Below are positions 6,291-10,943 of a DNA stretch of 64,000 nt, in pieces (within the stretch, counting starts at the first letter, position 1; each line of letters starts with the position of its first letter). The translations under genes and the position numbers were made by a program. The notes beneath the pieces were generated by a model that did no database searches, was not told the DNA's origin, and saw nothing but the letters and a program-made list of their open reading frames with translations. The stretch is from Candidatus Thorarchaeota archaeon. GTDB lineage: Archaea; Asgardarchaeota; Thorarchaeia; Thorarchaeales; Thorarchaeaceae. Location of the stretch: contig RDOC01000003.1 of assembly GCA_011364985.1 (NCBI GenBank), forward strand, positions 1-64,000. The letters run 5' to 3'.

Positions 6291-6905
6291 TTGCCAAGGG
6301 TAAGTACACCGAAGATGATTGATTCAGTAGACGAATTCAAGGAATTCGTAGGACTGTTTGGTAGATCAGGGACAAGGAAAGCTGCAATTGCGGCTATGAA
6401 GTCCCTTCCGAACAAAGAGAGGGGTTCTTCAGATATTGGAAAGATGGCTGGAGTCACCTCCGCAGACGCCAAGAAGACCGTAACCAAGCTCAAATCGATA
6501 GGGATAGTTCATGATACGCCAAGCCGACGCTTTCGGGCAAGTCGAAGCATTGGGTGGACGGATAACCTCATCAGGCAGCTGAGCACACTTCCTCTTGAAC
6601 AACAAGAGAAACTTATTTACTACGCAATTCTAGCACAGAAAGAAAGTATCTCTGATACTGCCAAATTCTGGAGGACGAGAGGCAACACCACCAAATGGTT
6701 GAATGAGTGGGGGCAAGCAAGGCCGAGATTGAGCTTCGGAATGAAATACATTCCCGCATCAATGGCGGCAGATGTTGCAAAGGTAATGGAGAGGTTTGAG
6801 AAAGATCTCAGTGCCACCATTACACAGAAAGAAACAGCAATGGGAGAAGGAGAGGTCGACGAACCATTACTGCTGCTCCAATGGCTGGTAGTACCTACTG
6901 GTTGA
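6291..6905 (+). CDS. Winged-helix transcriptional regulator (ArsR-like)
   Basis: GAGGAGGAG RBS with TTG start; HTH-like SSDIGKMAGVTSADAKKTVTKLKSIGIV. Confidence 0.6.
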   Translation: MPRVSTPKMIDSVDEFKEFVGLFGRSGTRKAAIAAMKSLPNKERGSSDIGKMAGVTSADAKKTVTKLKSIGIVHDTPSRRFRASRSIGWTDNLIRQLSTLPLEQQEKLIYYAILAQKESISDTAKFWRTRGNTTKWLNEWGQARPRLSFGMKYIPASMAADVAKVMERFEKDLSATITQKETAMGEGEVDEPLLLLQWLVVPTG

Positions 6906-6928
6906 AAAGGTTGTGGAGGAGTACATAG

Positions 6929-7036
6929 ATGGAATTGGAATGGATCGAGGAACCTATCGATGTGTGGGAAACTACAGAAGAACTTGAAGCATGCAGTTGC
7001 TTCACGGCATGCTTTACTTGTGTTCTCTTCTGGTAG
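6929..7036 (+). CDS. Putative RiPP precursor peptide, 35 aa: MELEWIEEPIDVWETTEELEACSCFTACFTCVLFW
   Basis: GGAGGA RBS at 6915-6920, ATG 6929, TAG 7034; acidic leader plus four-Cys core; lies just upstream of peptidase and rSAM-SPASM genes. Confidence 0.8.
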   Translation: MELEWIEEPIDVWETTEELEACSCFTACFTCVLFW

Positions 7037-7071
7037 CGGAAGCGACATCTAGTCAGAATCAAGATTACGAT

Positions 7072-7760: not shown

Positions 7761-9146
7761 ATGGTTCAGTTGAAGCAATCGAGATTCTTAGTCAGCTTCG
7801 ACCTTGATAACGAAAAGAAGGTTCTGGTTTCAAATCTCACTAACGCAATTTGTGTTGTTGATTCTGAAGCATTGAGCGTTGTCGAGGATTTCAAGTTTCC
7901 AACTCATGAAGAAACATATGTCCAAAATCCAGAAACAGCTGATCTGATTAACCAGCTGAGAAGAGGAGGAATCTTAGTCGAGGCAGATACTGACGAATTG
8001 GGCTTGTACGAAAGAAGGATCAAATATGCCTCTAGAGAAGCGGTCTACACTCTTGTGTTGACATATGACTGCAATTTAGCTTGTGCATACTGCTACGAGG
8101 GCCATAAAGAACCAGAGCATTTGACCATTGATACTGCAAAGAAGATTCTGGATTTTATATCTGCAAGGGCAAGAAAGGAGAAACAGAAGAGGGTGGGGAT
8201 TGGATTCTACGGAGGAGAACCACTTCTAAGAAAGGAAGCAATGTTCGAAATACTTGAATTAGCGGAACAAATGTTGCCTCGTGAAACGACACTCTCCACA
8301 AGCATAGCGACCAATGGTGTGCTTCTCACTGATGACATCACCGAAGTACTGAAGAACTACAATTGTGAGAACATCCAGATAACAATAGATGGTCCGCCTG
8401 AGATTCACGACAAGCGACGACCCAAGATTTCAGGCGCTGGAACCTTTGAGGATGTCATTGCAGGTGCACAATCAGTCTTACGTCATTCGATAATTCTTCT
8501 TCTGCGAGTTAACTTAGATTCAGAGAACATATCATACGTTCCTCAATTCATTGAGGTTTTGAAGTCACTGAAATTCAATCAGCCAGATGTGCTCATAATG
8601 CCAAGTCCAGTTCTGACCACCACATCGGCATGCAAAGACTACGCCCATTATTGCCTATCTTCTCCCAGATATGCTAGCATGATTGTGAGCTGCCTTAAGG
8701 AGTTTGGTGAACAAGGATTCAATGTGTTTTGGCGGGAGGCACGACCATCAATACACTATTGCGAAGCGCTCGGAAAGAATGCCAGGTTGATCTTCGATGC
8801 GAGAGGTGACGCATACACTTGTCTTGCGGGTTTGAGAAGAGAGGAATATCTTGTTGGAAATATCCATAACAGACCTATAATTGATAAGTCATTGTTCAGC
8901 AAATGGGAACAGAGATCTCCACTCCAATTCGAGGAGTGCATGAATTGTGATATTGTTGGCTTCTGTGGAGGAGGATGTCCGGATGAAGCATTTGATGAGC
9001 ATGGGACATTTGATGCCATACATTGTCCATACATTCTTTATAGCTATAAGGATGCAATAAGAGAATACATCAATCTGAAATTGAAGTATCCGTCACGCTG
9101 GAGAAGAGGGTATCCCACCCGGCTTATGGGTGATACTGATGTTTGA
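7761..9146 (+). CDS. Radical SAM/SPASM peptide maturase
   Basis: CNLACAYC, FYGGEPLL, TNG, IDG; SPASM CMNCDIVGFCGGGCP; ~85-aa N-terminal RRE-like extension. Confidence 0.92.
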   Translation: MVQLKQSRFLVSFDLDNEKKVLVSNLTNAICVVDSEALSVVEDFKFPTHEETYVQNPETADLINQLRRGGILVEADTDELGLYERRIKYASREAVYTLVLTYDCNLACAYCYEGHKEPEHLTIDTAKKILDFISARARKEKQKRVGIGFYGGEPLLRKEAMFEILELAEQMLPRETTLSTSIATNGVLLTDDITEVLKNYNCENIQITIDGPPEIHDKRRPKISGAGTFEDVIAGAQSVLRHSIILLLRVNLDSENISYVPQFIEVLKSLKFNQPDVLIMPSPVLTTTSACKDYAHYCLSSPRYASMIVSCLKEFGEQGFNVFWREARPSIHYCEALGKNARLIFDARGDAYTCLAGLRREEYLVGNIHNRPIIDKSLFSKWEQRSPLQFEECMNCDIVGFCGGGCPDEAFDEHGTFDAIHCPYILYSYKDAIREYINLKLKYPSRWRRGYPTRLMGDTDV

Positions 9147-10467
9147 AGAGAAGGATGCACTGGATTTGGCAGTCAGTTCCTATGAAACAACAGAGTTCTA
9201 TAGATGGTTCTATGACAAGCACAAGATTGATCCGTATAAGACGACGTATGATGCACTTCCTATTCTCCGTAGAAATGAGATATTCGAGTATCAGGAACTC
9301 ACAGGAAAGCCTTACTATGGTATGGATATCCCAGATACCGATCTAATCAGATTGGAGACTTCCGGATCAACAGGAAGACCTCTTCAAGTAATCTATACGA
9401 AAGAAAGATGGGAAAAGGCGTACGGGATTCTTCGACACGGTTTTGACCAATTTGGAATACATAAGAAGATCTTCACGTACCATTCCATTCCACTCGAAAA
9501 GATGCTTGAACCTCTTATGAGTACATGGGGCTTGGAAACGAAATTCATTTCATCTTCAGATATGCTTGACGTGAAGCTTGTAAGGGATGCCATAAAAGCA
9601 GAGAAGCCCGACGTGATTTACGACGCGACAGGCCGATGGCTTCTCCATCTGCTTGAAGGTGGTTTACCACTAGGAGAAATGGGTGTGAAAGCTTTCCTGA
9701 TAATGAGAGCTGACAATCACGACATACAAACGCTCAGGGAGAAAGGGATGAATCTGCTGTTCTTTCTTCCATCAACAGATCTCGGGTGCATTGCTTGTTC
9801 GTGCCCTCATTCAGTGAGCTTTCATCTCGCTGAAGAGCCACTGTTTCATGTTTCCAGTAATGATAGACTGGATTCAGTGGGAGAAGGAGAGCTGGTAGCT
9901 ACATTCCCATTTTCTATCCTTCCCCTGATTAAGTACACCAACAACGACTATGTTAGACTTGTCAAAAAGGATTGTATATGTGGTTTTTCAGGTCGATTTC
10001 TGCAATTCATCGGTAGGTCAATGCAAGTCAAGGTGCCAGATGTTGAGGGATGGTACGTCGACGTAGACAAGGTGTACCACGAGTTCTTTGACAGATACAA
10101 GAAGCCCATACTAATGATGTTTATGACTGCAAGAATCAAAGGAAGAGGAAAAGCAGTTGATATGCTTGCGACATTCATCGAAAGCCACGAATCCAAAGAC
10201 CCCATCCTAAGATACGACCTTTCTAATGACGTTGTTTCTGTTGGAACTGGGAAATACCTTCCTGATTTGGTCGATGTGCTTCCCGTGATTATTGTTCCCA
10301 GCGGGAGCATTCCCATTATTGATAAGAAAGGGACAAAACCAAGAATGTTCCTCGATATCCGCGCAAGAACTCCTCAACAGGAATACAATGCCTTGATTGA
10401 AACGCTGAATGAACTTGCATCAGCGAAGATTCAATTCGAAGATCAATCCAAAACTAGCAATCTATGA
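9139..10467 (+). CDS. Phenylacetate-CoA ligase (PaaK)-like adenylate-forming enzyme
   Basis: TSGSTGRP, GEGELVAT, PLIKY..ND, CICG motifs; overlaps the rSAM stop. Confidence 0.8.
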   Translation: MFEEKDALDLAVSSYETTEFYRWFYDKHKIDPYKTTYDALPILRRNEIFEYQELTGKPYYGMDIPDTDLIRLETSGSTGRPLQVIYTKERWEKAYGILRHGFDQFGIHKKIFTYHSIPLEKMLEPLMSTWGLETKFISSSDMLDVKLVRDAIKAEKPDVIYDATGRWLLHLLEGGLPLGEMGVKAFLIMRADNHDIQTLREKGMNLLFFLPSTDLGCIACSCPHSVSFHLAEEPLFHVSSNDRLDSVGEGELVATFPFSILPLIKYTNNDYVRLVKKDCICGFSGRFLQFIGRSMQVKVPDVEGWYVDVDKVYHEFFDRYKKPILMMFMTARIKGRGKAVDMLATFIESHESKDPILRYDLSNDVVSVGTGKYLPDLVDVLPVIIVPSGSIPIIDKKGTKPRMFLDIRARTPQQEYNALIETLNELASAKIQFEDQSKTSNL

Positions 10468-10493
10468 GAGGCTCAATATGAGGAGAATGATTA

Positions 10494-10943
10494 ATGATGA
10501 GTAAAATCAAGAAGATCATTTTTGAAGAGAAGTGGAAAGGGCTGGGGAGTATCTACGCCTTCACTTATGCGTGCCTAGTGGCATATTTGGAAGCAATGTA
10601 CGGCAAACAAGATGTTGATAAATTCCTAGATTTTATGGCAGACCAAGCAAAGCCCTTGTACGCTCCTCTGAAAGGGAAAAGTGTTGAAGAGGCATCCGAC
10701 ATGTTGTTCAGTGCTGGACAATCCTTCTTTGATATCCTTGATTCGAAAACAGCTTCTGATAGACATTCCATTGTTACATCATGCCTTATGAGAAACTTAT
10801 TGAAAGAAATGCATCTTCGCTCAGATTTGATATGCACTTTCTGCGAACAAGTCCTAAGACCCGCGATCTATGCAGCCTCAGACTATGAAATGCAGATTGA
10901 TAGGACAGCAGGAGAGTGCAAGATATCCCTGAGTCGATCCTAA
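10494..10943 (+). CDS. V4R / ATC-hydrolase-like small Cys-containing protein
   Basis: TSCLM...ICTFCE...GECKI Cys spacing; last gene of the operon. Confidence 0.5.
   Translation: MMSKIKKIIFEEKWKGLGSIYAFTYACLVAYLEAMYGKQDVDKFLDFMADQAKPLYAPLKGKSVEEASDMLFSAGQSFFDILDSKTASDRHSIVTSCLMRNLLKEMHLRSDLICTFCEQVLRPAIYAASDYEMQIDRTAGECKISLSRS

Follow-up and report, generated by a model that had tools for sequence, protein, structure and literature searches.

In this study we describe an operon of six genes at positions 6291–10943 of a 64,000-nucleotide stretch of DNA (the window), the initial 64 kb of contig 16 (RDOC01000003.1) of a marine-sediment metagenome-assembled genome (1.7 Mb, 22 contigs) of a Candidatus Thorarchaeota archaeon. 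The operon most likely yields a small cysteine-cross-linked peptide by means of a radical S-adenosylmethionine (rSAM) enzyme and three helper proteins almost without relatives in public data. Read as a whole, it would be an accessory operon for a ribosomally made and post-translationally modified peptide (RiPP) that combines thioether formation by the rSAM enzyme, removal of the leader by a zincin, an ATP-dependent ligation and a 149-residue binding protein, and we put the probability of this reading at roughly 60%. Sequence comparison with loci that encode related maturases supports an operon of the RiPP type whose Cys-rich precursor is genuine.

All six open reading frames (ORFs) lie on the + strand, and verification of the frames and their spacings confirmed the co-oriented genes with short gaps or overlaps that an earlier, sequence-only reading of this DNA had listed. 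The gene of a winged helix-turn-helix (wHTH) protein (6291–6905, 204 residues, TTG start) is followed after 23 nt by the precursor ORF (6929–7036, 35 residues, MELEWIEEPIDVWETTEELEACSCFTACFTCVLFW). The next gene, which encodes a protein with an HExxH motif (6991–7740, 249 residues as the longest frame, HEMIH at residues 111–115), overlaps the precursor by 46 nt in that longest frame or follows it after 35 nt when a later start is used. After a further 20 nt comes the rSAM/SPASM gene (7761–9146, 461 residues), which overlaps the ligase gene (9130/9139–10467, with homologues beginning at ATG 9139) by 8 nt (ATGTTTGA), so that the ligase gene is translationally coupled to it; the gene of the 149-residue protein (10494–10943) begins 26 nt beyond the ligase gene. 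Strong ribosome-binding sites had been claimed throughout. This holds for four of the six genes, with GGAGG-type sites upstream of the wHTH gene (GAGGAGGAG, ahead of its TTG start), the precursor (GGAGGAG, 8 nt upstream of the ATG), the rSAM gene and the 149-residue protein gene (GAGGAG), and does not hold for the HExxH and ligase genes, ahead of which our inspection found no GGAGG-type site. A scan for bacterial-type promoter and terminator signals in the locus stayed at chance level. No RNA record was listed for the locus, and two metatranscriptome runs of the source study gave no contigs, an outcome that is neutral as to expression. A hydropathy scan of the six products found no transmembrane-like segment except for one marginal window inside the ligase; the operon therefore contains no transporter, in agreement with what had been stated before. 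The operon is also contiguous in an independent assembly, where one Logan contig of 5,529 bp spans 5912–11440 unbroken. Other Logan contigs of the source sample hold alternative versions (∼88–94% identity) of the end of the neighboring cassette array, at 5054–5941, while the contig over 5912–11440 is unbranched; strains thus vary immediately upstream of the operon.

The precursor consists of an acidic leader (approximately residues 1–21, beginning MELEWIEEPI and so containing WIEEPI) and a hydrophobic core of 14 residues, CSCFTACFTCVLFW, with four cysteines spaced C-x-C-x3-C-x2-C and with neither Asp nor Glu. The start of the leader bears the signature [WYF]-I-x-x-P, and we scanned the small ORFs of 160 loci encoding rSAM relatives for the corresponding pattern (^M.{0,4}[WYF]I..P). 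These 160 cellular loci, together with 80 viral ones that enter below, are among the matches listed for the rSAM enzyme and encode relatives 24–35% identical to it, with none of the 37–64% ones among them. The pattern was present in 56 of the 12,022 small ORFs (a background of 0.47%); 39 of these 56 were Cys-rich, and all 39 lay on the same strand as the rSAM gene. One such peptide, from a fermentation-metagenome locus (L040, 7836–7952), begins MNWIEEPI and has the exact WIEEPI in common with the precursor. Some of the related peptides match TIGR04333, the model for the Clo7bot Cys-rich peptide; the 35-residue peptide itself gives no match to this model. The leader signature common to Cys-rich peptides beside homologous bacterial maturases thus bears out the precursor that the sequence-only reading had named, and we take it as good evidence at the sequence level that 6929–7036 is a real substrate gene of this rSAM/SPASM maturase family. 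As an observation in its own right, some of the related loci (L040, 7660–7952 and 9364–9525; L096, 5983–7641; L011, 4229–5265) carry tandem precursors, three to eight per locus, beside rSAM/SPASM maturases; their leaders all follow M-x-[WYF]-I-x-x-P, and their Cys-rich cores are hypervariable. To judge from their sequences, these loci look like a large, little-studied peptide family.

The 461-residue protein matches the Pfam Radical_SAM model (E 2.5e-19). Its CxxxCxxC cluster motif (C104, C108, C111) is invariant in nine relatives, as are the SPASM cysteines (C334-x14-G349-x4-C354 and C393-x2-C396-x5-C402-x3-C406), and an additional cysteine (HCPY) follows the SPASM set in all relatives but one, whose sequence stops earlier. 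With the Pfam match and the intact cluster motifs, the rSAM/SPASM assignment made before is supported. Among NCBIfam models the highest scores were obtained for CefB (NF038107, 254 bits, cut-off 600), the Clo7bot maturase (TIGR04334, 196 bits, cut-off 600), TIGR04463 (183 bits) and the geopeptide model (162 bits), the last two also below cut-off, and lower ones for PapB (140 bits, cut-off 340) and SCIFF (108 bits, cut-off 425). The protein falls below every equivalog cut-off and is hence a member of no named equivalog. The best match in the PDB profiles was CteB (5wgg, ∼150 bits, ∼25% identity), aligned from residue 27 to 420 over the RiPP recognition element (RRE), the rSAM core and the SPASM domain of that enzyme. 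The ∼95 residues ahead of the rSAM core align with CteB from CteB residue 23 and give no separate RRE or PqqD match; we predict from this alignment that the extension is an RRE-like leader-binding region. We also considered whether the protein is an anaerobic sulfatase-maturating enzyme (anSME) and rejected this identity, because the anSME scores (101 bits in NCBIfam, rank twelfth, cut-off 349, and 83 bits in the PDB profiles) are lower than those of the peptide maturases in both sets of profiles. By these scores, the enzyme groups with the RiPP maturases CefB, Clo7bot and CteB and not with the sulfatase maturases, and by analogy with such maturases it is predicted to form thioether cross-links. 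The host genome (G000) has two more rSAM/SPASM-like paralogues (C20, 3543–4589, and C3, 381–836), which are 27–31% identical to the operon maturase.

An M48-like zincin had been proposed for the HExxH protein, and both sequence and fold comparisons agree with this. Its match to Pfam Peptidase_M48 is marginal, at 23.7 bits against a cut-off of 20.3 and over only positions 16–90 of the 186 in the profile, and the matches to the M56 and SprT models are weaker. H111, E112, H115 and E156 are invariant across the known relatives of the protein; E156 sits in an invariant AEYYVV, in the next long helix of the AlphaFold2 (AF2) model, and is a candidate third zinc ligand. In the core of this model (residues 40–180, predicted local distance difference test score (pLDDT) 74–89) a helix and three strands precede the HExxH helix, the arrangement seen in the archaeal minigluzincins (selecase, abylysin and jannalysin) and in M48/M56 peptidases. 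VIA gave Z 8.5 for selecase and abylysin (root-mean-square deviation 2.4–2.7 Å over 95–100 residues), followed by SPRTN, BepA, ZMPSTE24 and BlaR1, with Z 6.4–7.1 for the M48 members BepA and ZMPSTE24, and the top Foldseek match was abylysin (probability 1.00). As to whether the protein could be an alpha-ketoglutarate-type HExxH oxygenase, NCBIfam returned weak HtpX and LoiP matches only, and all top structural matches were peptidases in a comparison that included no solved oxygenase of this type. No 19-residue window exceeds a hydropathy of 1.6, and a membrane M48 protease was accordingly rejected as its identity; HtpX, Ste24 and BlaR1, by contrast, have membrane segments. Compared with the minigluzincins, the operon protein is approximately twice as long, with an extra helical C-terminal half. 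Residues 1–39 are unconserved and were not confidently modeled (pLDDT < 50), and hence the true start probably lies downstream of 6991, after the precursor stop; ATG 7009, TTG 7018 and GTG 7072, all on the + strand, are the candidates. Judged by profile and model, the protein is a soluble minigluzincin/M48-like zincin, and it is a candidate leader peptidase.

For the ligase, the sequence-only reading had named a PaaK-like adenylase. The motifs ETSGSTGRP (the P-loop), GEGELVAT, YTNNDYV, GRS and KKGTKPRMFLDIR are conserved in four members of the close clade, and the protein carries a C-terminal K/R motif. Its best PDB matches were the PaaK-like enzymes NatL2 (6siw, E 8e-6) and AjiA1 (6wuq), in matches that span only ∼80 ligase residues (E 1e-5 to 1e-8). 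NCBIfam returned DVU_1553, FlxY, BagE/FevW and PaaK, all far below their cut-offs; against the PaaK models TIGR02155 and NF041878 the ligase scores 15–19 bits, where the cut-offs are 646–700. Pfam AMP-binding gave no match at E ≤ 0.1. With its ANL motifs intact and PaaK-like ligases as its best matches, the adenylase assignment stands, and at the sequence level the protein is a very divergent PaaK-like adenylate-forming enzyme of the ANL superfamily, not PaaK itself. NatL2, AjiA1 and BagE/FevW, which have these ANL motifs in common with the ligase, are independent of coenzyme A (CoA): they adenylate an aromatic acid and make the ester or amide directly. Their substrates are small aromatic acids and their pathways are non-ribosomal, with no RiPP role described, and our literature search found no paper joining PaaK or phenylacetate-CoA ligase with radical SAM and a RiPP or precursor peptide.

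The 149-residue protein is soluble and has five cysteines (C27, C97, C114, C117 and C142) that are conserved in its single homologue (50% identity). It had been labeled V4R-like, a label that the direct comparisons did not uphold: Pfam V4R (PF02830) gave no match at E ≤ 10, and hhalign against the V4R protein of the same genome gave a probability of 0.3%. The ATC_hydrolase model (PF14196) and hhalign against the genome's own member of that family were likewise negative. At the fold level, an ESM Atlas model (pLDDT 0.82) resembles ATC_hydrolase-type clusters with template-modeling (TM) scores of 0.68–0.76. From a poor AF2 model (pLDDT 55), Foldseek returned a weak Bet3/TRAPP match (probability 0.9, E 5e-3) and VIA noise only (Z ≤ 5.2). 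Bet3/TRAPP and V4R belong to the same fold class. Going by these models, the fold may be ATC-hydrolase/V4R/Bet3-like, which keeps the V4R label as a fold-level lead only, and a binder of a ligand or peptide, a carrier and a second substrate are candidate roles.

The genes of the operon have few relatives, and those that exist tend to be recorded together. The rSAM enzyme has three relatives at 62–64% identity, after which identity drops to 37%; the ligase belongs to one of three clusters among 5.8 billion (two besides its own), 1.84 billion representatives include just two relatives of the zincin, and the 149-residue protein has one. Relatives of all four (P0127, zincin, 49% identity; P0005, rSAM, 64%; P0002, ligase, 59%; P0125, 149-residue protein, 50%) are each recorded on one Logan contig of 6,698 bp. 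Similarly, P0007 (rSAM, 62%), P0130 (ligase) and a second rSAM are each recorded on one contig of 7,494 bp, and one more contig of the ligase clade (P0003, 3,929 bp) has no rSAM on record. Further homologous contigs are those of 7,737 bp (P0131) and 2,606 bp (P0006). The second rSAM that the 7,494-bp contig seems to encode (P0009, beside P0007 and P0130) is an rSAM/SPASM paralogue, 37% identical, with the accession MEA1994447.1 and the NCBI label 'Euryarchaeota archaeon'; this suggests a two-maturase version in a host outside the Asgard group. A distant bacterial locus, L013 (OHMY01000005.1), encodes an rSAM and a full-length PaaK-like ligase homologue (23% identity, pairwise E 1e-17) that retains the SGSTGRP P-loop, its downstream motifs having diverged. 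There the two genes overlap by 20 nt and ABC transporter genes come next. Since ligase and 149-residue protein co-occur with the rSAM elsewhere (on the 6,698-bp contig and, for the ligase, also on the 7,494-bp contig and in L013) and the rSAM scores favor peptide maturases, both tests that the sequence-only reading had offered for its own refutation speak in favor of the operon. The gene order in L013 (6790–12419) is an XRE-type helix-turn-helix gene, rSAM/SPASM, the overlapping PaaK-like ligase, an ABC ATPase and a permease, and a possible peptide of 31–37 residues with the core ...NCCFDG... lies at 7734–7847.

Within the archaea, we did not find the operon in 16 genomes of the same genus or in 400 Asgard genomes, and homology with the relatives does not set in before 11265, a short way upstream of a tRNA. 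Run against the 400 Asgard genomes, the ligase profile picked up generic PaaK paralogues only, with distant PaaK-like matches in 15 of the 399 other than the host; the Theionarchaea phylum (133 genomes) and five further archaeal genomes gave no match to it, and pattern scans of metagenome, genome and viral contigs found no relative of the ligase. The operon is hence an accessory block and has probably been transferred.

Starting from the gene order, the coupling, the family assignments, the leader motif and the co-occurrence of four of the genes elsewhere, all of which are observed, we propose the following pathway. The 35-residue peptide would be the substrate, its acidic WIEEPI leader being bound by the N-terminal domain of the rSAM enzyme. 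With three Fe-S clusters and S-adenosylmethionine, this enzyme would link the four cysteines of the core to neighboring residues as thioethers, a chemistry that we model on sactipeptide or ranthipeptide maturases. The soluble minigluzincin-like zincin would then cut off the leader. In a fourth step, the PaaK-like ligase might adenylate a carboxylate and hand the acyl group to a nucleophile without CoA, as NatL2 and AjiA1 do. This carboxylate could be that of the C-terminal Trp, in which case a macrocycle, or an amide or ester at the C-terminus, would result; alternatively, a small aromatic or fatty acid could be activated and then attached to the peptide. The five-cysteine 149-residue protein might serve to bind the hydrophobic product or, alternatively, the acyl donor or a metal, and the wHTH protein would regulate the operon. 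It is the thioether chemistry, the cleavage of the leader by the zincin, the details of the ligase and 149-residue protein steps and the order of all steps that we infer here.

In its maturase and precursor the operon has known counterparts. By sequence, its core is of the broad Clo7bot/CefB/CteB-like maturase kind, outside every named equivalog. Clo7bot (TIGR04333/TIGR04334) and the CefA/CefB 'Cys-every-fifth' system (NF038107) have rSAM/SPASM enzymes of ∼440–460 residues with an N-terminal extension, as here, and the short peptides beside these maturases (M-x-[WYF]-I-x-x-P and a Cys-rich end) resemble our precursor. The present system differs from them in its archaeal host, in the Cys spacing of the precursor and in maturase scores of 254 and 196 against cut-offs of 600; in addition, the zincin and the 149-residue protein were not found in the fetched bacterial loci, and a PaaK-like ligase was found there only in L013. 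Our literature search found no paper on Clo7bot, and products of the Clo7bot/CefB families were not found characterized. Cys-to-carbon thioethers as expected here are likewise formed by CteB/SCIFF (thermocellin), PapB (freyrasin) and the sactipeptide maturases, of which CteB is the best solved relative; in comparison with CteB, PapB and SCIFF, identity is ∼25%, and sequence does not assign the link carbon (alpha, beta or gamma). Subtilosin A, encoded by the sbo-alb operon, is a peptide with rSAM-made Cys-to-Phe/Thr thioethers; its operon encodes zinc peptidases, and its synthesis ends with a macrocyclization. The overall logic may be similar, with the differences that the Alb peptidases are M16 enzymes and the zincin here is M48-like, that sbo-alb has an ABC transporter and no ANL ligase, and that cyclization in our case is a hypothesis. 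To our knowledge very few archaeal RiPPs have been characterized, and the literature searched offered no description of an Asgard RiPP, only survey-type papers, nor any of the accessory gene set of zincin, PaaK-like ligase and 149-residue protein. An archaeal precedent is CrpC of Methanococcus voltae, an rSAM/SPASM enzyme with an RRE that installs thioethers (ranthionine links) on the Cys-rich protein CrpA (PMC13692751). By its description this pair resembles the operon in joining an archaeal rSAM/SPASM enzyme to a ribosomal Cys-rich substrate, but the Crp substrate is a protein and not a 35-residue peptide, and no ligase, zincin or 149-residue partner is described there (PMC13692751).

Several points weigh against the pathway as proposed. 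Neither a transporter nor an obvious immunity gene is present in the operon. We judged the co-location of the four genes on the 6,698-bp contig, and of rSAM and ligase on the 7,494-bp contig, from equal contig sizes. Among the 160 cellular and 80 viral rSAM loci a PaaK-like neighbor occurs in L013 only, and hidden Markov models of the zincin and the 149-residue protein match in none of them; given that these 240 loci are nearly devoid of the accessory set, it is not general to the rSAM family, and operon membership is what ties it to the peptide. The leader-motif support is drawn from rSAM relatives at 24–35% identity and none of it from the closest homologues (62–64%). Moreover, since the core has no Asp or Glu, a peptide carboxylate offered to the ligase could only be the C-terminus, a Trp. 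It might be asked whether the RiPP system is a minimal one of precursor and rSAM, perhaps with the zincin, next to which the ligase and the 149-residue protein form a separate module that never touches the peptide, for example a pair for the activation and binding of aromatic or fatty acids, a sensor or a detoxification pair. PaaK-like genes are common housekeeping paralogues in Asgard archaea (as in the 15 genomes with distant matches), 239 of the 240 listed rSAM loci have no such neighbor, and the structural neighbors of the 149-residue protein are small-ligand-binding folds. We nevertheless consider such a separate module unlikely: the 8-nt overlap of rSAM and ligase genes is echoed by the 20-nt overlap in the unrelated L013, the ligase clade has been seen only on contigs of the rSAM clade (this locus and those of 6,698 and 7,494 bp), bar the one of 3,929 bp, and it is absent from the 400 Asgard genomes, which do have ordinary PaaK paralogues.

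A different substrate for the maturase is harder to defend. The five-cysteine 149-residue protein could be the real or an additional substrate of the rSAM, in the manner of CrpC on CrpA, with the 35-residue ORF being minor or spurious. The archaeal precedent of ranthionine links on a Cys-rich protein (PMC13692751) speaks for this, as does the fact that the protein keeps its five cysteines in its sole homologue and travels with the rSAM. But the 35-residue ORF has a strong ribosome-binding site and a family-specific leader motif, and the 149-residue protein has no N-terminal leader motif and has its cysteines scattered through a predicted globular fold, so that we regard this explanation as very improbable. 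We hold as least probable of all that the operon is a passenger, be it recently acquired, not expressed or in decay, that sits in a variable region beside a hot spot of integration at a tRNA and does nothing for this organism at present. It would account for the absence of the operon from the 16 genomes of the same genus, for the beginning of homology with relatives only at 11265 and for the duplication of the 3' half of the tRNA by an insertion; against it, six frames are intact and have ribosome-binding sites or coupling, and the catalytic motifs are kept at 49–64% identity to the homologues, which indicates that the proteins have been maintained over a long divergence. The sequence-only reading had further suggested that the operon belongs to an 11-kb antagonism island. 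Adjacency to the cassette array was the sole basis for this; the operon has neither an exporter nor an immunity gene, and we found no support for a functional tie to the array or for a role in antagonism.

In this operon a well-understood class of rSAM/SPASM thioether enzymes is joined to three near-orphan partners. The recurrence of an rSAM and PaaK-like pair in this operon and in the bacterial L013 points to an ATP-dependent step, so far not described, in the tailoring of Cys-rich peptides. In a bolder version, which we think distinctly unlikely, the ligase would be a new kind of RiPP tailoring enzyme: having adenylated the C-terminal Trp carboxylate of the thioether-bridged core, it would join this end either to the new N-terminus or to the side chain of a Ser, Thr or Cys. 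The 149-residue protein may act as its partner, for instance by way of a thioester or thiazoline-type intermediate, and the product would be circular and thioether-stapled. Were this true, ribosomal pathways would gain their first ANL-type peptide macrocyclase and Asgard archaea their first characterized RiPP. The components are all small and soluble, which would allow the pathway to be reconstructed in E. coli.

The putative regulator at the head of the operon (6291–6905, + strand) is a basic protein (pI 9.8) whose C-terminal domain has no assigned family. Its match to the Pfam TrmB helix-turn-helix model is very weak (E 0.2), its ESM Atlas structural neighbor belongs to the HTH_20/HTH_5 family (TM score 0.63), and every named feature match is to a wHTH family. 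In the 400 Asgard genomes we found no relative of it bar one weak match. Going by the structural model, it is probably an ArsR/HTH_5-type winged-helix regulator.

To the right of the operon, and outside it, lies a tRNA-Ala(GGC) gene (11314–11450, + strand), which had been named as the flanking landmark and can be read by eye: its acceptor stem is GGGCCGG/CCGGTCC with G3:U70, and its anticodon loop is TTGGCA. Two introns interrupt it: one (∼30 nt) lies in the D-loop, the other (∼29 nt) at 37/38. Neither default ARAGORN nor Rfam called a tRNA at 11314–11450; ARAGORN -i gave one at exactly these coordinates, misnamed as tRNA-Trp(CCA) with a single intron of 57 nt. The 3' half of the tRNA is duplicated (11376–11456 and 11680–11791). 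In two genomes of the same genus (G001 and G015) the second 3' copy follows immediately on the 5' half (88–92% identity), and hence an insert of ∼256 bp supplied a substitute 3' half, with displacement of the ancestral one. This insert looks like the relic of an integrated element, and further copies of the tRNA 3' end downstream on the contigs of relatives suggest that the tRNA locus is an integration hot spot. The possibility that the operon itself is cargo of the tRNA-splitting element was rejected, because the insert occupies approximately 11424–11679, downstream of the tRNA 5' half, and does not cover the operon. An ORF at 11658–12845 encodes a protein of the endonuclease/exonuclease/phosphatase family (Pfam Exo_endo_phos_3, E 1e-14) and has no counterpart beside the tRNA or the conserved Lrp gene in relatives; its listed TTG start overruns the displaced tRNA 3' half, so that the true start is probably much later. 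Inside the insert, between the two tRNA 3' halves, an ORF of 58 residues on the − strand (11461–11637) encodes two CxxC pairs and is zinc-ribbon-like.

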